Positions 15,972-27,893 are shown, numbered from the stretch's first letter. The stretch is DNA of 64,000 nucleotides from an uncultured Candidatus Saccharibacteria bacterium (GCA_964513645.1 CAZENF010000001.1:71303-135302), one strand, 5' to 3'. The notes: a model not told the origin generated them from the sequence alone. Numbers and translations are program-made.

Positions 15972-17942
15972 TCAATTCCCGTAATCTACGGTCAATTTTA
16001 TCCGGCTGCGGTCGGTCGGAACCTTAAAAACCCAGAAAGGCGATAGAATAACCCTGGCCGAAGTTACTCCGTCAACTCCTTTTATATATTCCTTGATGCC
16101 ATCTGAATTTTTACCCATCAGATCCGAAATTATTTTTTCCTGATCTACTGTCTGATAAACATTACCTTTAACCGCAACCGTAAAAGTCATTACCTTCTGA
16201 TCTTTATCAAAATTAACATTATCAAATTTTATATCCAGTTTATCTGGAAATACTGTCACTTGGTTTGCATTTTGAATTATCCTTGTTATGAGATCGTCAA
16301 AATCAGATTGTTTGAATCCGACAGTGTTAAGCGTAGCCGTGCCAGAAACAGTAAAGGTATCAGCCGCTTGATCTACCTGTGCGCTTGAAACAATATCGCC
16401 CATTTCCGGTGCGACATTGTCCAGGATCTTTAACTGGGCCGCCTGGCCTTTAAGGTCATTCTTAATATCTTCTGCCAGTTTTTTCTGAACAGCATCTTTG
16501 GCTTTTGCATAATCATCCTGGGTAACTACCTTGGCTTTTCCGATTATACCGCCGACCATCGCTTTATCTGCCTGGCCGTAAATTTTACCGTACCGGTCCA
16601 TGTCCCCTTTTTCTTTAAAAGCCGGCATCGTAAATTTCCCGGGACTTATATTATACGTATCACCCGCCTTATCGGCTATAACTTCAACGTCGATAGTTCC
16701 CGGTATTATCTTTCCGTTGACGACCTTTGTTCCGGGAACGGTAACGTTCTTTAATGTCCTGAATATCAGGCCATTGGAATTTTCGAAACGTGTCGTGGCA
16801 ATAAGTATCTGGTATGTGGTTCCGTACTCATTGTAGATTGTGATTGTGCCGCGCGCTTTTTGTGCTACATCTTTCTCGCCGGTCGAAGGAAAAGTCTGGT
16901 CTTCTTTTTTACTTAGAGAAAAAAGTTGGCCGGGTATTCTTTTCAAAGCCGGGTCGACGGAAGAATAAGAATCCGAAACGCTTATTTTTATTCCGGAAAA
17001 ATCAACCGGAGAAACTTTGGGTTTAATTATCAATTCTGCCTTGCCCATTGAAACATAAAGCACGAAGCCAAAAATTATAACCACCCCTAATCCGTAAAGA
17101 TAGAGCGTTTTTTTGGATAAATTAGAAACCCATTTACCGACCGGAAATCCTGGCAACTTGTAACCTTCGGTCGGACCGGCATATATCTTTTGAGGAACTT
17201 CGCGCCCCAGAGGTTCTTGAGGAGTCGGCATAGCACGCACGGGAGGAGACTCACGTCTTGATTGCCAAACATTTTGTATCTCATTCATTGCCGACCTTTC
17301 AAGCATTTTGCTTTTTACCGACTGCGAGCGCCTGAACTCGCGTCTAACTTCAACATCAAACGGTTGTTCTGCAGTCTCATCAACCTTAACACTCACTGGG
17401 TCTTCTTTTTCAGGCTGGATAATATCGTCCATTGATTTTGAAACCTTAGCCGCCGCAAGCACTGCGCTTTCTTCGGGATCAAGTTCCGGCGTTTCAGACG
17501 AACCATAATCAACTTCATCATAAGAAGGGCTTTTAAAACCTTCAGAATCATCTTCGTTCCGCATCTCATCTCTGGCAGTATTTGTTTCTTGATATTGGTC
17601 GTCCTTATCTTCTTCCTCGACATCTTCCTCGACATCTTCCTCGACATCTTCCTCGACATCTTCATCGGCTTCTTCTTCATCATCACTCTCACTGGTTAGA
17701 ATTCCAAAATTATAACTCGAAGCCATGGCATTTATCTCCGGATTTTCGCTTAAGATAAGGACGGCCTTATCTAATTCTTCGGAAACATCGGCTAAAAGAG
17801 AGAAATTATCTTCTTTGGCAAAAGCTTTCGGTCTTTTGGGCAAAACAAAAATGACCTCATCGGCCTGAGCTTTCTTGAAAATCTCGAGTATATCACTGAA
17901 CTTATCGTCCCGGAGGACGTTGATTATCTTTGTCCCCGCCAT
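15972..17942 (-). CDS. hypothetical single-pass membrane protein with acidic EEDV repeat region
   Basis: 656 aa. A conserved-looking N-terminal domain of about 85 aa, an acidic low-complexity region (EEDVEEDVEEDVEEDVEE), one TM helix (LYLYGLGVVIIFGFVLYVSM) and a C-terminal extracytoplasmic domain of about 340 aa. No family recognised. It sits where secY-adk-map normally precede infA. Confidence 0.5.
   Translation of the reverse strand: MAGTKIINVLRDDKFSDILEIFKKAQADEVIFVLPKRPKAFAKEDNFSLLADVSEELDKAVLILSENPEINAMASSYNFGILTSESDDEEEADEDVEEDVEEDVEEDVEEEDKDDQYQETNTARDEMRNEDDSEGFKSPSYDEVDYGSSETPELDPEESAVLAAAKVSKSMDDIIQPEKEDPVSVKVDETAEQPFDVEVRREFRRSQSVKSKMLERSAMNEIQNVWQSRRESPPVRAMPTPQEPLGREVPQKIYAGPTEGYKLPGFPVGKWVSNLSKKTLYLYGLGVVIIFGFVLYVSMGKAELIIKPKVSPVDFSGIKISVSDSYSSVDPALKRIPGQLFSLSKKEDQTFPSTGEKDVAQKARGTITIYNEYGTTYQILIATTRFENSNGLIFRTLKNVTVPGTKVVNGKIIPGTIDVEVIADKAGDTYNISPGKFTMPAFKEKGDMDRYGKIYGQADKAMVGGIIGKAKVVTQDDYAKAKDAVQKKLAEDIKNDLKGQAAQLKILDNVAPEMGDIVSSAQVDQAADTFTVSGTATLNTVGFKQSDFDDLITRIIQNANQVTVFPDKLDIKFDNVNFDKDQKVMTFTVAVKGNVYQTVDQEKIISDLMGKNSDGIKEYIKGVDGVTSARVILSPFWVFKVPTDRSRIKLTVDYGN
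17609..17668. repeat. 12-nt tandem repeat (catcttcctcga) x about 4.5 inside the CDS
   Basis: Seen directly. It encodes the (EEDV)n tract, and the antisense ORF MSRKMSRK is an artefact of this repeat. Confidence 0.8.
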
Positions 17943-22241: not shown

Positions 22242-22505
22242 TTATAGCACCACTCCTTCTTGAGCTAAAATTCTCTTTTTCTTGTCAGAACCGCTGTTGA
22301 AGCCGCCGGCCGTACCGTCCGAACGGATGACACGGTGACAATAAACCTTGGAATTTCGGTTTTTATTCAGAATATTTCCCACTGCCCGATAAGCTTTCGG
22401 CCTTCCGGCAAGTTTGGCAACTTGTTTGTAGGTTAAAGTTTTACCTCTCGGTATTTTGGACGCTATTTCATAAACTTTTTGGGCAAATCCAGAAGGTATT
22501 GACAT
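22242..22505 (-). CDS. ogt: methylated-DNA--protein-cysteine methyltransferase (DNA-binding/catalytic domain only)
   Basis: Active-site VYCHRVIRSDG, cf. PCHRV, plus an HTH. The start is placed at the internal MSIPSGF, because the longer ORF overlaps the upstream gene. Confidence 0.7.
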   Translation of the reverse strand: MSIPSGFAQKVYEIASKIPRGKTLTYKQVAKLAGRPKAYRAVGNILNKNRNSKVYCHRVIRSDGTAGGFNSGSDKKKRILAQEGVVL

Positions 22506-22530
22506 AATTAGAGTTTTACGGGACTTTTTT

Positions 22531-22863
22531 TTACTTAATTCCTGTTCCAGGTTTAACTTCCGATTCGAGTGCAAGCAAAACCGGGCCTGTTTCATTCGAA
22601 GCCGCAAGAAGCATGCCCTGGGATTCAAAACCCATAAGTTTTCTCGGTTCGAGATTGGCAACAACAACTATCTGTTTGCCGACGAGAATCTCCGGTTCGT
22701 AGGCCTTTCCTATACCTGCAACTAATTGACGCTTGCCCAATTCCCCCACATCTATCTGTAGTTTGACCAACTTATCCGAACCTTCAACCCTGACCGCTTC
22801 TAATATTTTTGCGGTTCTAAGTTCAATTTTTGAAAAATCTTCGTATTTTATGGTCTCGCTCAT
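22531..22863 (-). CDS. tRNA-binding domain protein (CsaA/Trbp111/MetRS-C-terminal-like)
   Basis: FSKIELRTAKILEAVRVEGSDKLVKLQIDVGE...QIVVVANLEPRKLMGFESQGMLLAA is an OB-fold tRNA-binding (Myf) domain. Confidence 0.7.
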   Translation of the reverse strand: MSETIKYEDFSKIELRTAKILEAVRVEGSDKLVKLQIDVGELGKRQLVAGIGKAYEPEILVGKQIVVVANLEPRKLMGFESQGMLLAASNETGPVLLALESEVKPGTGIK

Positions 22864-23435
22864 TTTATATATTTCTTAAACTCCGACCAAGATTTAAGTT
22901 TTGTATAATTATCGGCCTTGTCAAAAGCATTGAAAGGATCAAAAAGATACCTGTTGGGAACATCCGACAAAACATTAATGACTTTGAGCTCATCGTCAAT
23001 GTAATGAGTAAGGCCTAATTTTATGGCCTGGTTATTTTTATCTCTGGGCTCATTCACAAAGAAAGAGTTATTTCCATGGAAGTGTTTAGGCCACAATTTA
23101 TGCTTCTTCAGTATATTTATCGCCACTTCGGGTATTTTTCTTCTGGATATCAGAAAATATGGTATCTTCTTTTCATCAAGCGCGCTCAAGGTGGCCTTAA
23201 TACCTTTCATCAACGGGACGGAAAGGGCGATCTCTGAATTGTCATAAAGAAGTTTTTGAATCTCCTCCCAGACGATATGAGGCATCATTGTTTTAAGTAT
23301 CTCGGAAGGAGTATGCCCCAATTTAAGGTCAAATCCGAACCTTTTAGCAAGTTTTAATTTGACGTCGTAGTTATCCAAAATAACCCCGTCCATATCAAAA
23401 CCGATTATTTTTTTGTCCGGCTTGCTCTTAGTCAT
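22860..23435 (-). CDS. HAD-superfamily hydrolase, 5'(3')-deoxyribonucleotidase-like
   Basis: HAD motif I, IGFDMDGVILDN. It has the size and layout of NT5C-type nucleotidases and is divergent from a kinase gene. Confidence 0.5.
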   Translation of the reverse strand: MTKSKPDKKIIGFDMDGVILDNYDVKLKLAKRFGFDLKLGHTPSEILKTMMPHIVWEEIQKLLYDNSEIALSVPLMKGIKATLSALDEKKIPYFLISRRKIPEVAINILKKHKLWPKHFHGNNSFFVNEPRDKNNQAIKLGLTHYIDDELKVINVLSDVPNRYLFDPFNAFDKADNYTKLKSWSEFKKYIK

Positions 23436-23490
23436 AGTATTCTATATATTAGAGCAGATATTGAACTTTTACAAATCGGTGAGAGACCGG

Positions 23491-24219
23491 ATGTCTAAAA
23501 ATAAAGACACCGAGCAAATTCTCGAACAAAAAGCCAAGAACATTCTTGAATACCTTAAGAGCAACCTCCGTTACGACAATGGTTTCTTGCCTAGACCTTT
23601 CATGATCGAATTCACCGGCCCTCCTTCAGCCGGCAAAACTACGACCATTAAAGAACTTTATGATTTTTTGAGGCCTTTGGGCTTCCGAGTCTGGCGACCC
23701 CAAGAAGGTGCCGAAAATATCCAGGACATTCCAAGAACAACCCCAATGTACAACATCGCCACTGCGATCTATTCTCTTGAAAAAATAATCCACGAGAGTT
23801 TCAGACATACTTACGATATAATCTTGTTCGACAGAGCTTTATTTGATGCTTATTGTTGGATGGAATACTGGCTCGAAAAAGAAAAATTGTCTTTAAATGA
23901 AAAAGGTCTGTTGCAGTCCTATTTTACTTTTGATTTTTTTACTAAAAACCTGGACCTTGTTTATTTTATGATCTGCGATTCACAAGTCGCGATCGAAAGA
24001 GAGATGCGAGTTGCTTTGAGCCGCAGACCGAGAGAAACAACCACTCCGGCGAGCATTGAAAGCAAGGTCAAACTTTGGCAAAAAGTTTACAAACTCCTCC
24101 ACCCTGTCCATCCCAATGTTAGATTGGTTAACACAACTGAAATGAATGAACAGGAAATGATCGAATTTGTTGCAAACGATGTTCTGACAGTTCTTGAAGC
24201 CAAGTCAAAACGCCTCTAA
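23491..24219 (+). CDS. P-loop NTPase, deoxynucleoside-kinase-like
   Basis: Walker A, FTGPPSAGKTT, and a DR-type motif, FDRALFDAY. The start is placed at the ATG at 23491 to avoid overlap with the divergent gene. Confidence 0.45.
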   Translation: MSKNKDTEQILEQKAKNILEYLKSNLRYDNGFLPRPFMIEFTGPPSAGKTTTIKELYDFLRPLGFRVWRPQEGAENIQDIPRTTPMYNIATAIYSLEKIIHESFRHTYDIILFDRALFDAYCWMEYWLEKEKLSLNEKGLLQSYFTFDFFTKNLDLVYFMICDSQVAIEREMRVALSRRPRETTTPASIESKVKLWQKVYKLLHPVHPNVRLVNTTEMNEQEMIEFVANDVLTVLEAKSKRL

Positions 24220-24230
24220 GGGCGTTTTTT
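24207..24230. terminator. bidirectional rho-independent terminator
   Basis: aaaacgcc-tctaag-ggcgtttttt, shared by convergent genes. Confidence 0.6.
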
Positions 24231-24909
24231 ATTGAGATTCGGATTGGAAAGCGTTGCTCAAACATTGTACCAACTGATCGGTCGGGGTCCAACCGCATTG
24301 CCCATCAGGTTGGCGTTCGCATTTTGCCGTTTTATAACAGGCGTATTCCGGCTTCACTTCACAGGTAGTGGTAACATCCTGATCCGAACATATCTGACCG
24401 GAGCAACCGGTAATTTTACACCCGCCGGAAGTCGTCGAACCGGAAAGCCAGTTGTTCAGATCAAAAGTCACTGGAACCTTCAGTTCAGCGTCATTTTGAG
24501 CTAACCCTGAAGGATTATCCCTTTTAAGGACCAAGAATCCGCCGGTTGTGGAGGGTTTCTTAAATTCAAGCAATGCCTGGAAAGAAACAAAATTGTCGGT
24601 CATCCAGTCGCCTTGAGCTTTGGCAGGTACTGAACCCAATAAATTCATGTTTGAATCATATATTTGGACCGGGAACGAGGCCTCGAAATACCAATTACCT
24701 CTCGCTTGGCCGCTGACATTGACCGGACTCTTGATAAGTTCGGCCGGGCCTGGTTTTTCAAGTTTTATCATATCCGAAACATCTTTACCTGTCGGACTCG
24801 GAGTAGGAGAAAATTGGGTTATATTCGTTGAATTATTCGATGAACGAAGCACAAATAAAGCAGCGACAACCAGAAATACGACCAAGGTAATTATTATTTT
24901 ATTTTTCAT
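24229..24909 (-). CDS. hypothetical secreted Cys-rich protein
   Basis: Signal anchor. C-terminal segment GGCKITGCSGQICSDQDVTTTCEVKPEYACYKTAKCERQPDGQCGW has 10 Cys. Confidence 0.4.
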   Translation of the reverse strand: MKNKIIITLVVFLVVAALFVLRSSNNSTNITQFSPTPSPTGKDVSDMIKLEKPGPAELIKSPVNVSGQARGNWYFEASFPVQIYDSNMNLLGSVPAKAQGDWMTDNFVSFQALLEFKKPSTTGGFLVLKRDNPSGLAQNDAELKVPVTFDLNNWLSGSTTSGGCKITGCSGQICSDQDVTTTCEVKPEYACYKTAKCERQPDGQCGWTPTDQLVQCLSNAFQSESQ

Positions 24910-24912
24910 AGA

Positions 24913-25380
24913 TTATTGAGAATTAAAACCAACCTGAAACCTTATAAAAATTATATTTCCGTTATTATCCTGGAAAGGTGTATCAATTGCCGGGGTAAAT
25001 ATTCCATCCCCACTGTCTTCATGAACCATTGCGTATAAGTACTCGCCACTTATTATCGGGTGGATAAGACCGATAAGAAATTTATCGGATTTTCCTGGTA
25101 AAAGCAGTCTGCTGTTACCGATTATCTTGCTAATATTACCACGGCTATCCTCTTCATAAATTACAACAAAACCCGCTTTTGTTAAAGATGCGGAATTCAC
25201 AACAACGGACGACCCTGGTCTTTGGACAGAAACATAAACATAGTTAGCTGGCAATTCTACAGGCTGGGAATTAATGGCGGTCTGTCCCGGAAGAAGCAAT
25301 GTTTTGCCGGCAAAAAAATTCTGATATATCAAGAGTCCACCGAGAATTATAAAAAGTGTGATGAGCAGAACTATCTTCAT
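24913..25380 (-). CDS. hypothetical secreted protein
   Basis: Signal peptide or anchor. 155 aa. Translationally coupled to its neighbours. Confidence 0.35.
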   Translation of the reverse strand: MKIVLLITLFIILGGLLIYQNFFAGKTLLLPGQTAINSQPVELPANYVYVSVQRPGSSVVVNSASLTKAGFVVIYEEDSRGNISKIIGNSRLLLPGKSDKFLIGLIHPIISGEYLYAMVHEDSGDGIFTPAIDTPFQDNNGNIIFIRFQVGFNSQ

Positions 25381-26042
25381 TTTTTGAGAAGCTTATATAT
25401 TTCTTCGGATGTTTTTTGATCGATAAGCTGGACATCTGTGTTCTCTATCAAAGAAACTATATCCGGCCTTGACGATATCCTGACCCCTCTGACTGTTTTG
25501 GGTACGGAGTTAAGATCGGCTTTTAAACTTGAAAAGGCAATGACTGGGGTTACAATAAAATCACGACTAAGATTTTTCTTAAGAAATTGAGCCAAACTGT
25601 ATGATTTCTCGAGCGAACCTGTTATCAGGCCCTTCAAAACCTTCTCATTCTGAACCAATTCTTCTCCGTTAAAACTTATCATCCCACCGCTGTCTTTAAT
25701 GTTCACCAGCCAGACCCCGGAAGAACCGATCGCAATGTAATCAGCTTTGACATTGTTGGACAAAGAAACCTTCGAAGCTAGCTGGAAACCTTCGGATAAT
25801 TTATGAATATCGATCGAAAAATTAAGATTGTCGGTCATAAGCTGAATAGCGTGGCCGGTGCTCAAGATTATTTCTATCAGAACATCAAGAATTATAAAGA
25901 ATATTCCCAACCAGATAAAACGGGTTAGGGTTGTATAGCCCGTCAGGTCATAAAAAGGCCAAAGCCAGTTGGCCAATGCCGCCCCGACCACAGCCGCCAT
26001 CCCAATAAAGTACCAGAATAATTTTTTGAAATAACCGGCCAT
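25377..26042 (-). CDS. membrane-anchored NERD-domain protein
   Basis: Two N-terminal TM helices. ADYIAIGSSGVWLVNIKDSGGMISFNGEELVQNEK matches the NERD (nuclease-related domain) core, cf. DhlvigpnGvfvIEtKnysG. Confidence 0.5.
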   Translation of the reverse strand: MAGYFKKLFWYFIGMAAVVGAALANWLWPFYDLTGYTTLTRFIWLGIFFIILDVLIEIILSTGHAIQLMTDNLNFSIDIHKLSEGFQLASKVSLSNNVKADYIAIGSSGVWLVNIKDSGGMISFNGEELVQNEKVLKGLITGSLEKSYSLAQFLKKNLSRDFIVTPVIAFSSLKADLNSVPKTVRGVRISSRPDIVSLIENTDVQLIDQKTSEEIYKLLKK

Positions 26043-26359
26043 TACAATTTTTTCTTTACTTCCATTTCATAATCACTGAAACCGGCAGAAACCTCCGAAA
26101 CATCAAACTTTCTTTTGATCAGGTCTTTCGATCTTTTGGAGAGCAAAAATTCAAAGGTCATTTTAACCAGCTCTTCAGGTTCCACCCTGCGGCCGGTCAA
26201 AAGGGTCCAATATTCCCGGTTAACGTTTACTAGATATTCAGTCAAACCGTCCCCATGACCAAGTTCAACCAAAAAGGTCCAGCCGTTCGCACTCTGGCCT
26301 TCTTCGGTAACCTTCATTTCATCGTAATCTTCAGCAAATTCGGACATCTTTTGAAACAC
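26042..26359 (-). CDS. hypothetical small acidic protein
   Basis: 105 aa. Its start overlaps the NERD gene stop. Confidence 0.35.
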   Translation of the reverse strand: MFQKMSEFAEDYDEMKVTEEGQSANGWTFLVELGHGDGLTEYLVNVNREYWTLLTGRRVEPEELVKMTFEFLLSKRSKDLIKRKFDVSEVSAGFSDYEMEVKKKL

Positions 26360-26388
26360 CCGGTATTAAGCCGGGATGCTTACTCACA

Positions 26389-27483
26389 TTATATCAATTT
26401 CCCCCTCCAATGAGAATCTATGTATGAGGCCGCTTCGCTTAATCTTAAGGATGTCGTACCGTTGCCGGTGCGGATAAAAAACTCTTCATTGACATCGTTT
26501 TGGAGGTAAGCAGGCTTTGAGGAAGGAAGGATCCTGACCAGACAACAATCCTTATTCCCGGCCCGGGTAAATTTAAGCTGGACAAACTGACGGTATTCAG
26601 GCCCGATCATAGAGTGAAAAACATTCGTAAAGTGATTCTCGAATCCGTCCGGGTTCTGTTTGGGCAATGAGCCATAATCATCTTCTAGACCGACAACGTT
26701 TCCTGAATCATTAACTCCTAATATCAGCTGCCCTCCGTTCGAGTTCATAAAAGCAACGATCGTTTTCATGACCGATCTCTCAAGATTCTTATTGACCTTG
26801 TTTTGCTTAAGATCCCATCTGAAGGAACTCTTGAATTCAAGCCGTTCGTGTTCACCACTGGAGATGATATCCTCGACTGTCATGTTATCTTTTTTATTGA
26901 GCGGATTCTCGGATGTATCCCTTAATTTACCCAGAAGTTCGACATAGTAACGAGGTTCGGGAATATTCTTTATCTGAAAATCTTTGATATTGCCACCGTG
27001 AAGGCTGACCGTTCCGTACTTGGTAAGTTTGGCCAAAGGGCCCTGGCTGTAGCTGATTGAACTGACATCTTTCATAGCCAAAACCGTTCTTTTCCTGAAA
27101 ATAATTCCCCGGGCATGAACTATTTTATCGGGCTTAATATCGTAATATTCCTTATACCAGCGGAAGAAAATATAAAACACCATCGAGGTTTCAAAAATAA
27201 ATATCCCCGCTGCTTCGGCAATATGAAAAGAAAGCAGTCTGGCAATCGGTAAACCACGGTATATTTTGACATAGTCCCCCATTACCGCAACAATGAAAAA
27301 AGCGGCAACAGCCGCCACCTGAAGCACAATAAAATTCTTGACTATAACTACCGGGCTTTTCTTTATCAAAATCGATGAATTGAAGCCGGTCTCATTCATA
27401 GATGTATTATGTATTTTTTTTAACGGAAGACAAGGGCAATAATCAACGCTAACCTTGACCGGAACAAAATTTAATATTATCAT
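26389..27483 (-). CDS. membrane protein with bacterial PH (bPH_2/YdbS-like) domain fused to AlbA_2/Schlafen-like putative nucleic-acid-binding domain
   Basis: TM helices, then a bPH_2-like segment (YDIKPDKIVHARGIIFRKRTVLAMKDVSSISYSQGPLAKLTKYGTVSL). The C-terminus, EHERLEFKSS...SVMKTIVAFMNSNGGQLILGVNDSGNVVGLEDDY, fits the AlbA_2 signature. Confidence 0.5.
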   Translation of the reverse strand: MIILNFVPVKVSVDYCPCLPLKKIHNTSMNETGFNSSILIKKSPVVIVKNFIVLQVAAVAAFFIVAVMGDYVKIYRGLPIARLLSFHIAEAAGIFIFETSMVFYIFFRWYKEYYDIKPDKIVHARGIIFRKRTVLAMKDVSSISYSQGPLAKLTKYGTVSLHGGNIKDFQIKNIPEPRYYVELLGKLRDTSENPLNKKDNMTVEDIISSGEHERLEFKSSFRWDLKQNKVNKNLERSVMKTIVAFMNSNGGQLILGVNDSGNVVGLEDDYGSLPKQNPDGFENHFTNVFHSMIGPEYRQFVQLKFTRAGNKDCCLVRILPSSKPAYLQNDVNEEFFIRTGNGTTSLRLSEAASYIDSHWRGKLI

Positions 27484-27514: not shown

Positions 27515-27877
27515 ATGGCTTCAGTCATCATTGAAGGCGGCAATGATCCGATAATTGCCAAAACCTGGAAAGATACGGTAAGAGTCAGACTGCTTCATGA
27601 TATTTATTCTTACTGCGGTCATGTTGGCGACCTAACAAACATAGACGTTCAGCCCAAAAGATTTATTTCAAAAGATTCGGGTGATGAAGTAACCGTGGGA
27701 GATGTCAGGGCAATTCTGATAGAAATGTACGAGGAGGGCCTTATCACGGGAATCCGTTTCAAATGTAACTGTTGTGCGCACCAAAAATTCCCGCCTAAGG
27801 AAGTTTTAGACCACGTTCTTGAATTCAAATTGACCCAAAAAGGCTTTGACCGTACGCCGGAACATATTTTCCCATAG
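27515..27877 (+). CDS. hypothetical protein
   Basis: 120 aa with a CNCCAH motif. Followed by the terminator agcgcc-agaa-ggcgcttttt at 27876-27895. Confidence 0.35.
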   Translation: MASVIIEGGNDPIIAKTWKDTVRVRLLHDIYSYCGHVGDLTNIDVQPKRFISKDSGDEVTVGDVRAILIEMYEEGLITGIRFKCNCCAHQKFPPKEVLDHVLEFKLTQKGFDRTPEHIFP

Positions 27878-27893
27878 CGCCAGAAGGCGCTTT

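Follow-up and report, generated by a model that had tools for sequence, protein, structure and literature searches.

The minus-strand cluster at positions 24229-27483 of a 64,000-nucleotide stretch of DNA from an uncultured bacterium deposited as Candidatus Saccharibacteria (GCA_964513645.1 CAZENF010000001.1:71303-135302; we refer to the whole stretch as the window) holds five genes, A to E, which probably belong to two unrelated units lying side by side: gene A, for a putative membrane-tethered Schlafen ribonuclease (RNase), and an accessory envelope cassette, B-E. We put the probability of this reading at about 0.6. Gene A is a stand-alone gene, conserved across its bacterial class, with vertical-looking inheritance and without a fixed partner. 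Genes B, C, E and, in some genomes, D make up an accessory cassette that is restricted to one lineage and has a promoter-like site and a terminator of its own; its role, by analogy, is probably in the cell envelope. The genome in question is Yanofskybacteria/Taylorbacteria-like, of the class Paceibacteria in the candidate phyla radiation (CPR), and is densely packed and almost single-stranded in its gene order. All five minus-strand open reading frames (ORFs) that a first-pass annotation had placed here are present. Independent gene calls on an identical Logan contig, together with homologues, moved the start of A to Met29 (ATG at 27399, giving 336 residues) and that of B to Met5 (ATG at 26347, giving 101 residues). 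The features of the cluster, including the transmembrane (TM) segments of A, are as follows:

26389-27399, minus strand: gene A, 336 residues, TM hairpin followed by bPH_2 and AlbA_2/Schlafen domains (mechanical ORF 26389-27483; protein P0001 is 100% identical, 336 residues)
27166-27333, minus strand: TM pair of A, residues 23-78, with segments 23-41 and 60-78, from hydropathy and a positive-inside count
26953-27156, minus strand: bPH_2 domain of A, residues 82-149, from Pfam and a PHROG match to 'membrane-flanked domain'
26449-26853, minus strand: AlbA_2/Schlafen nuclease-type domain of A, residues 183-317, from Pfam and PDB profile matches to SLFNs
26348-26388, minus strand: A-B intergenic spacer, 41 nucleotides, with a hairpin CCCGG-N7-CCGGG and a -10-like TATAAT overlapping the stop codon of A
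26042-26347, minus strand: gene B, 101 residues, acidic cytoplasmic protein, isoelectric point (pI) 4.75, with an invariant GWTFLVELGHG
25377-26042, minus strand: gene C, 221 residues, two-TM anchor, long helix and NERD-like domain, putatively of PD-(D/E)xK fold, with a degenerate motif
24913-25380, minus strand: gene D, 155 residues, N-terminal hydrophobic anchor or signal and DUF7282
24229-24909, minus strand: gene E, 226 residues, N-terminal anchor or signal, Gmad2 immunoglobulin-like domain and C-terminal eight-cysteine domain
24207-24228, no strand assigned: hairpin and T-run AAAACGCC-cttaga-GGCGTTTT, between E and the convergent AAA_28 gene, read from the sequence

Both domains that the first-pass annotation had proposed for A lie above their Pfam gathering scores: bPH_2 (PF03703) scores 38.3 bits against a cutoff of 22, and SLFN_AlbA_2 (PF04326) 69.3 bits against 25.3. 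They are its sole Pfam domains, with no helix-turn-helix (HTH) or GHKL domain, and a PHROGs scan returned domain-level matches only. Seven Lys or Arg residues fall within the 25 residues after TM2, so an N-in/C-in topology is predicted from hydropathy and charge, in which the bPH and AlbA_2 domains face the cytoplasm. Immediately after TM2, Trp81 is invariant in an alignment of 86 sequences that share 35-66% identity with the window protein. A literature search found no paper describing a bPH-Schlafen fusion, or a Schlafen protein in CPR bacteria.

The AlbA_2 part is the most conserved region of A, with a mean column conservation of 0.63 versus 0.41 for the bPH domain across the 86 sequences. 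Glu183, Glu188, Lys190, Arg194, Asp196, Glu207, Asn219, Gly222, Gly223, Asp241, Asp251 and His256 are invariant (86/86), and Asp231, within GV(D/N)D, is present in 85 of the 86. The segment E183-HERL-E188-F-K190 fits the nuclease motif E(x)4(D/E)xK, a definition taken from the SLFN-pAgo preprint (bioRxiv 10.64898/2026.05.29.728809). It is followed by a Schlafen box, VAFMNSNGGQLILGVND, which conforms to AF(L/M)NSxGG with Asn219, Gly222 and Gly223, and then by Asp231. In SLFN-pAgo, a Schlafen fused to a prokaryotic Argonaute (pAgo), and in human SLFN11, an E(x)4(D/E)xK motif, a SAFAN box and an acidic metal-binding triad have been described (bioRxiv 10.64898/2026.05.29.728809), and the catalytic pair of CbCash, a CRISPR-associated Schlafen (Cash), is E17/D22 (PMC13462974). 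E183-x4-E188-x-K190, the box and Asp231 of A correspond to this set and to the CbCash pair, Asp231 being matched to SLFN D248/D252 by spacing and motif rather than by structural superposition. A PDB profile search with A retrieved Schlafens only (SLFN14, SLFN12, SLFN11, SLFN8 and SLFN5), plus one bacterial AlbA_2 structure. As read from the alignment, the predicted metal-site motif E-x4-E-x-K...D is intact and invariant or nearly so. The retention of an acidic triad and a lysine at 35-66% identity argues for an active-site pattern rather than a binding surface.

A protein search found 507 homologues of A; among the 120 listed, lengths range from 318 to 386 residues, identities from 51 to 66%, and PF03703 and PF04326 occur together in all. 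Their named sources are Candidatus Taylorbacteria, Yanofskybacteria and Paceibacterota. In a scan of one genome per species, a relative of A was present in at least 213 species genomes, and the 80 loci kept from these cover Yanofsky-, Niyogi-, Lipton-, Harrison-, Zambryski-, Wolfe-, Jorgensen- and Nealsonbacteria, with 35-66% identity across essentially the full length of A. The neighbourhoods of A were surveyed by six called-gene look-ups, by tblastn of 14 window proteins against 86 loci and by clustering of 1,412 neighbour ORFs. No gene family accompanied A across lineages in these 86 loci and 1,412 ORFs; the neighbours are clade-specific housekeeping genes. Identified by eye, they include, depending on the clade, Ddl-UvrC upstream, cyclophilin downstream or PGI downstream, and in another clade a BipA/FtsB-like gene upstream with PrfB-FtsE-FtsX downstream. 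Measured against the window proteins, identities of A and of the co-located tRNA_bind protein are 58-66% versus 65-79% in the near clade and 37-45% versus 58-63% in far clades; the two fall in step, the pattern expected for vertical descent. No full-length relative of A was found in viral contigs or plasmids, where the only hits were AlbA_2 matches inside Schlatpase, DUF262 and methylase fusions.

The tRNA_bind gene itself (CsaA/EMAP-like; 22531-22863, minus strand, in the window) lies 2-7 kilobases (kb) downstream of A both in the window clade and in a distant clade in which A is 37-45% identical (loci L030, L034, L036, L039, L045, L047, L048, L052 and L054). This proximity could be remnant synteny, or a loose tie between a putative tRNase and a tRNA-binding protein.

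The junctions within the cluster separate A from the rest. B and C share a TAATG overlap, C and D an ATGA overlap, and three nucleotides lie between D and E, so B-C-D-E is tightly coupled. The A/B spacer, at 41 nucleotides, contains a hairpin with a minimum free energy of -15.9 kcal/mol (z -3.0) and a promoter-like TTCTCA-17-TATAAT. The first-pass description of five translationally coupled genes, each junction being an overlap or a gap of at most 30 nucleotides, therefore applies to B-C-D-E and fails at A-B, the weak joint of the cluster, where coupling is doubtful. At the far end, the hairpin-T element at 24207-24228 is likely a bidirectional terminator closing the B-E unit. Close spacing is in any case ordinary in this genome: the minus strand carries 67 of the 77 mechanical genes of the window, the median same-strand gap is 11.5 nucleotides, 35 of 56 junctions are no wider than 30 nucleotides, and tight runs extend up to 12 junctions. 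Tight packing being the genome norm, five packed co-directional genes are no sign of an operon.

The B-E genes, unlike A, are restricted and variable. We compared 79 species genome loci containing an A ORF, 65 of them with at least 2 kb of downstream sequence. Of the 79, 6 contain B and 5 contain C, tblastn and hidden Markov models (HMMs) agreeing on these counts. In every species locus positive for B or C, A is at least 58% identical and the backbone AAA_28-HAD-tRNA_bind-Ogt-Germane-MurG, which the window has too, is kept, so the co-occurrence of B-E with A is accounted for by the general synteny of the near clade. HMM searches of all ORFs of the 86 loci found no divergent homologues of B or of C/NERD near A in distant genomes. 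The five-gene neighbourhood is thus not conserved beyond closely related, generally syntenic genomes, and the conservation looked for as support for a single cluster does not reach past the closest clade, in which synteny extends over the entire region.

Within that Yanofskybacteria-like clade (window 24229-26359 and loci L001-L013, L051 and L087-L098), the slot between A and AAA_28/HAD/tRNA_bind is itself variable, containing BCDE, BCE, B with a 140-residue Cys-rich protein, or a 280-residue secreted protein. All five genes occur together in L001/L008, L010, L089 and L092. In L003, L011 and L097, A and B are followed only by the 140-residue Cys-rich protein. In L012 and L013 the backbone is present on both sides (GSDH upstream, AAA_28 downstream) and B-E are replaced by the 280-residue secreted protein, accompanied in L012 by an M32 peptidase. 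Only the smaller part of the loci include D. When metagenomes were scanned with B as the seed, 12 loci emerged; in the 11 with enough sequence, A lies upstream of B at a distance of 6 nucleotides to 2.9 kb, and the intervening genes in several loci encode a 161-residue membrane protein, a 224-236-residue secreted protein on the opposite strand, or a 757-residue protein resembling penicillin-binding proteins, also on the opposite strand. B-C adjacency is tight wherever C is present. The C family comprises 54 members, all at least 48% identical, and a word-based search found 6 relatives of B. Two other descriptions of the cassette were considered and rejected. A horizontally acquired island was dismissed on composition, the GC content of B-E (0.41-0.43) equalling that of the window without any anomaly, even though the slot varies between relatives. 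A conserved housekeeping envelope operon of five genes was dismissed because the five genes are not conserved as a set and do not lie next to one another in every genome.

The NERD assignment of C finds its support at the level of the family. In the window protein, NERD (PF08378) scores 19.3 bits, below the Pfam cutoff of 22.1; 22 of 29 C-family members match NERD at E≤0.01 (best 3.4e-7), and a C-family profile reaches canonical NERD proteins. Against 1.84 billion representative sequences this profile gave 689 matches, 209 of them at E≤1e-10, mostly full-length and 220-250 residues long, and each of ten sampled matches scored between 32 and 122 bits on NERD. A two-TM anchor joined to NERD is therefore a common architecture, the standard one of a large family, and membrane tethering of a NERD domain is in itself nothing unusual. 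C resembles the canonical two-TM NERD proteins (PF08378; Grynberg & Godzik 2004) in length, in its two-helix N-terminal anchor and, probably, in the fold of its NERD domain, with profile E values down to 1e-24.

It differs from them at the motif. In a joint alignment, the canonical rGxxGE, NIDFVVVGPTG and IEVKSH stand opposite NLNFSIDI, KADYIAIGSSG and VNIKDS in the C clade. The GE glutamate is replaced; the ExK glutamate position is occupied by Asn, Asp, Ser, Thr or Met within the C family, and the lysine position by Lys, Arg, Gln or Ile. The aspartate alone is retained (Asp101; Asp or Glu in the family). Features fixed in the clade are GSSGVW and a C-terminal IENTDxQLID, the latter a gain relative to the canonical proteins, as are Asp53 and Glu57 inside TM2. 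From these replacements we infer that C, though of the NERD family, no longer has its conserved acidic/Lys motif and is presumably not a nuclease.

Asp53 and Glu57 are invariant in the C clade and absent from canonical two-TM NERD relatives. Intramembrane charges usually serve in ion or partner binding. In the hydropathy profile of C, TM1 falls just under threshold and TM2 is strong, the anchor having two helices as in the canonical relatives; the globular domain should be cytoplasmic. An AlphaFold2 (AF2) model of C has a predicted local distance difference test (pLDDT) score of 89. Foldseek matches to it are weak, none at E≤1e-3, and nearly all are PD-(D/E)xK nucleases (VC1899/Can2, the R2 endonuclease domain, Bax1, McrC, MunI, Hjc and RecU), and a broad NERD profile searched against PDB sequences found no solved relative. 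SmdA of Staphylococcus aureus, the only characterised bacterial NERD protein found in a literature search, is anchored in the membrane, is missing several of the residues conserved in NERD domains, and functions in cell morphology, division and the envelope (PMC9040797). C shares with it the membrane anchor, a long helix preceding a NERD-like domain without several conserved residues, and a conserved C-terminus; SmdA, however, has one TM helix, is 302 residues long and is monocistronic. The likeness is a functional analogy drawn from the description of SmdA, with demonstrated homology limited to the shared Pfam family.

The other members of the cassette fall on both sides of the membrane. D matches DUF7282 (PF23951; 54 bits against a cutoff of 27) and E matches Gmad2 (PF10648; 41.3 bits against 25.7), and each has a single N-terminal hydrophobic segment; judged by these segments, both are presumably exported or anchored outside. 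The C-terminus of E is an eight-cysteine domain (8 Cys; the NCBIfam TIGR04289/TIGR04292 region). E thereby resembles extracytoplasmic proteins of the Gmad2/Germane (GerM-like) and eight-cysteine-cluster families in its Gmad2 domain, its cysteines and its N-terminal anchor, but lies far below the equivalog cutoffs of their TIGR members (32 bits against 200). B is soluble and acidic (pI 4.75); the first-pass annotation had called it a 105-residue acidic protein, and the corrected length is 101. It has no match in Pfam, NCBIfam, PHROGs or PADLOC, and the last three gave no family or system match for C or D either. In the AF2 model of B (pLDDT 78), a meander of three strands precedes four helices; Foldseek found nothing significant for it in PDB (best E 0.15) or in BFVD (best E 0.05), and a PDB sequence-profile search returned only a non-significant eIF2-alpha stretch (E 0.24). 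In L007 (4823-5266), L090 (5446-5889) and P0178, the B frame runs upstream through a conserved peptide, ..CPEWAEAESISGAAKAGKSCYN.., which is absent from the window B and could represent either a genuine lengthening of the N-terminus or a leader that has been conserved.

How might A work? Its YdbS/YdbT-like TM hairpin and bPH domain would hold a single-lobe Schlafen nuclease domain at the cytoplasmic face of the membrane. There, A would act as a divalent-cation RNase, most likely on tRNA as in Cash and SLFN-pAgo, and would be active only once two or more domains are brought together. bPH domains reportedly form oligomeric rings. Single-lobe prokaryotic Schlafen domains must pair to form an active horseshoe (bioRxiv 10.64898/2026.05.29.728809), and Cash and SLFN-pAgo are both switched by changes in assembly (PMC13462974; bioRxiv 10.64898/2026.05.29.728809). 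Schlafen pairing, assembly switching and bPH rings together suggest an RNase under the control of a TM-bPH oligomer. A change in the membrane or envelope would alter the assembly of A through the TM-bPH module, leading to cleavage of translation RNA and growth arrest; envelope damage, attack by bacteriocins or phages, and host contact are candidate triggers. Alternatively, A may carry out routine membrane-proximal RNA turnover. In the cassette, cytoplasmic B, membrane-bound C and exported D and E may have a structural or regulatory role in the envelope, as SmdA does.

A shares features with two kinds of protein. With Cash, SLFN-pAgo/RzAgo and SLFN11/12/13/14 it has in common a single-lobe AlbA_2 domain, E-x4-(E/D)-x-K, a SAFAN-like box and a third acidic residue, and, as in Cash and SLFN-pAgo, the effector domain is joined to a second module through which oligomerisation could be controlled. 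Where Cash, SLFN-pAgo and Schlatpase have Csx15/CARF, GHKL ATPase, Argonaute or NACHT modules, A has the TM hairpin and bPH domain instead. Unlike Cash and SLFN-pAgo, it is membrane-anchored, and it is conserved across its class among housekeeping genes instead of having a patchy distribution within defence islands. The arrangement of two TM helices directly before a cytoplasmic bPH domain is that of YdbS/YdbT-type bPH_2 proteins (PF03703), and several A homologues are named 'membrane protein YdbS with pleckstrin-like domain' by the Joint Genome Institute (JGI). YdbS/YdbT-type proteins contain no nuclease domain, and A adds a C-terminal Schlafen domain to their plan. Proteins of this type are said to be linked to bacteriocin handling or resistance.

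Several points weigh against the two-unit reading and its functional content. Proteins A-E are known here from their genes alone. The RNase activity, tRNA substrate and bPH gating would be extrapolations from distant relatives, at about 30-40% identity across the AlbA_2 domain only, and the HMMER alignment to SLFN12/14 sets the E-x4-E of A in a different register, which makes the residue correspondence a reading of motif and spacing. The description of A as class-wide draws on record titles and a pattern-limited scan, and many of the metagenome-assembled genomes are nominally labelled 'Saccharibacteria'. The envelope role of B-E, for its part, draws on domain types and one analogy. Lastly, A lies upstream of B in all 11 metagenome loci with enough upstream sequence, a constancy that leaves room for a functional A-B link in this clade.

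The strongest challenge to the nuclease assignment holds that A, tethered to the membrane, binds nucleic acids without cleaving them, for instance to anchor DNA or RNA there or to sequester a regulator. Source annotations call it DNA- or RNA-binding ('putative DNA binding domain-containing protein'), an HTH is present in many prokaryotic AlbA_2 proteins, which are thought to be regulators, and several mammalian Schlafens are without catalysis (PMC13462974). Against this, the acidic triad and lysine are invariant or nearly so among the 86 sequences and A lacks an HTH or GHKL domain, which make a pure binding role unlikely. A slightly less probable alternative builds on the constant order of A and B and makes them a nuclease-inhibitor pair, resembling toxin and immunity protein, in which B would silence the Schlafen domain. 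B is small, acidic and of no other family, A stands upstream of it on the same strand wherever B is found, and L003, L011 and L097 retain A-B where C is lost. But most A-bearing genomes are without B within 8 kb by tblastn and HMM, so A does not need B; B is translationally coupled to C, not A; in several genomes A and B lie as much as 2.9 kb apart, with genes of the opposite strand between them; and their co-occurrence, confined to one syntenic clade, is explicable by descent.

The first-pass annotation had gone further and suggested a single membrane-associated module of all five genes, serving nucleic-acid sensing, defence against phages or DNA uptake. In its defence form, NERD and Schlafen effectors would act in abortive infection, with the secreted proteins as surface sensors. 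Schlafen domains do serve defence in Cash (PMC13462974) and SLFN-pAgo (bioRxiv 10.64898/2026.05.29.728809); A has a match to a pAgo N-terminal, AlbA_2-like model in PADLOC, weak (E 1.1e-3) and restricted to 45 residues of the AlbA_2 region; and the genes are co-directional and tightly packed, all five recurring in the near-clade loci named above. Yet A occurs without B-E in about 73 of the 79 species loci and has no fixed neighbour across the class, the cassette is variable and can be parted from A by opposite-strand genes, C is without the NERD motif residues, the packing is the genome norm and the composition is ordinary. Apart from the domain-level match of A, PADLOC-DB v2 yielded no defence system, neither the flanking genes nor B, C, D and E giving any match, and no integrases or restriction-modification, toxin-antitoxin or Cas proteins, and no defence island, were present among the genes examined. 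The surroundings are housekeeping: Dus, DNA polymerase III delta', MurG, a Germane protein, Ogt, tRNA_bind, a HAD hydrolase and AAA_28 below the cluster, and a 120-residue orphan, a GSDH-like propeller, a P-type ATPase, RsmE and ATP synthase beta above it. GC content is flat over the region. We consider the defence form very improbable. A DNA-uptake or competence surface system made of B-C-D-E, with or without A, is less credible still and would surprise us greatly: all that speaks for it is the nominal 'nuclease-related' domain of C together with exported D and E, against which stand the absence of ComEC, ComEA, pilin and secretin domains from the cluster by Pfam, the predicted cytoplasmic position and degeneracy of the C domain, and the confinement of the cassette to a small clade. 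What survives of the first-pass annotation is its domain assignments, which were correct in essence, and the part concerning A, which may well be a membrane-associated nucleic-acid enzyme; the unified module is not supported.

Other observations concern the rest of the window. Divergent from A, at 27515-27877 on the plus strand, is the 120-residue ORF, which carries a CNCCAH cysteine motif and is called as a gene on the identical Logan contig; it has no Pfam, NCBIfam or PHROG match, and tblastn found none in 98 related loci. A terminator-like hairpin follows it at 27876-27891. Gene callers give 242 rather than 268 residues for AAA_28 (23413-24219) and 87 residues for Ogt, whose mechanical ORF (22242-22667, minus strand, 141 residues, TTG start) overlaps tRNA_bind (22531-22863) by about 137 nucleotides; the long Ogt start is an artefact. 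A 656-residue ORF at 15972-17942 on the minus strand, amid housekeeping genes, has no Pfam match at E≤1e-3. Over positions 1-64000 the cumulative GC skew falls monotonically, coding density is about 92% and gene-strand bias is strong; the entire window probably lies in a single replichore.

Two cautions follow for reading such loci. In compact, single-strand genomes, tight co-directional packing does not mean an operon-level functional module, and the 'nuclease-related' label of NERD can sit on a protein without the motif residues of the family. For the Schlafen family, the interest lies in A. Prokaryotic Schlafens have only just been shown to be tRNases, and both characterised cases belong to mobile defence and are switched by a fused sensor (PMC13462974; bioRxiv 10.64898/2026.05.29.728809): cA4-binding Csx15 in Cash (PMC13462974), and Argonaute with a GHKL ATPase in SLFN-pAgo (bioRxiv 10.64898/2026.05.29.728809). 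A instead presents a Schlafen domain with an apparently intact motif on a membrane hairpin and bPH domain, under strong purifying selection across a genome-reduced CPR class. If active, it would represent a non-defence, or at least non-mobile, use of a Schlafen RNase, with the membrane as its input. More tentatively, and with the odds against so specific a proposal, A may be a near-core 'housekeeping Schlafen' of Paceibacteria, a vertically inherited tRNase tethered to the membrane, in which the TM-bPH module would sense the condition of the envelope or contact with a host and hold back translation. It would then be the first Schlafen to take its input from the membrane instead of from a sensor of nucleotides or nucleic acids, and would give ultra-small episymbionts an inbuilt growth switch. 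A is a testable candidate for growth or translation control in CPR bacteria.

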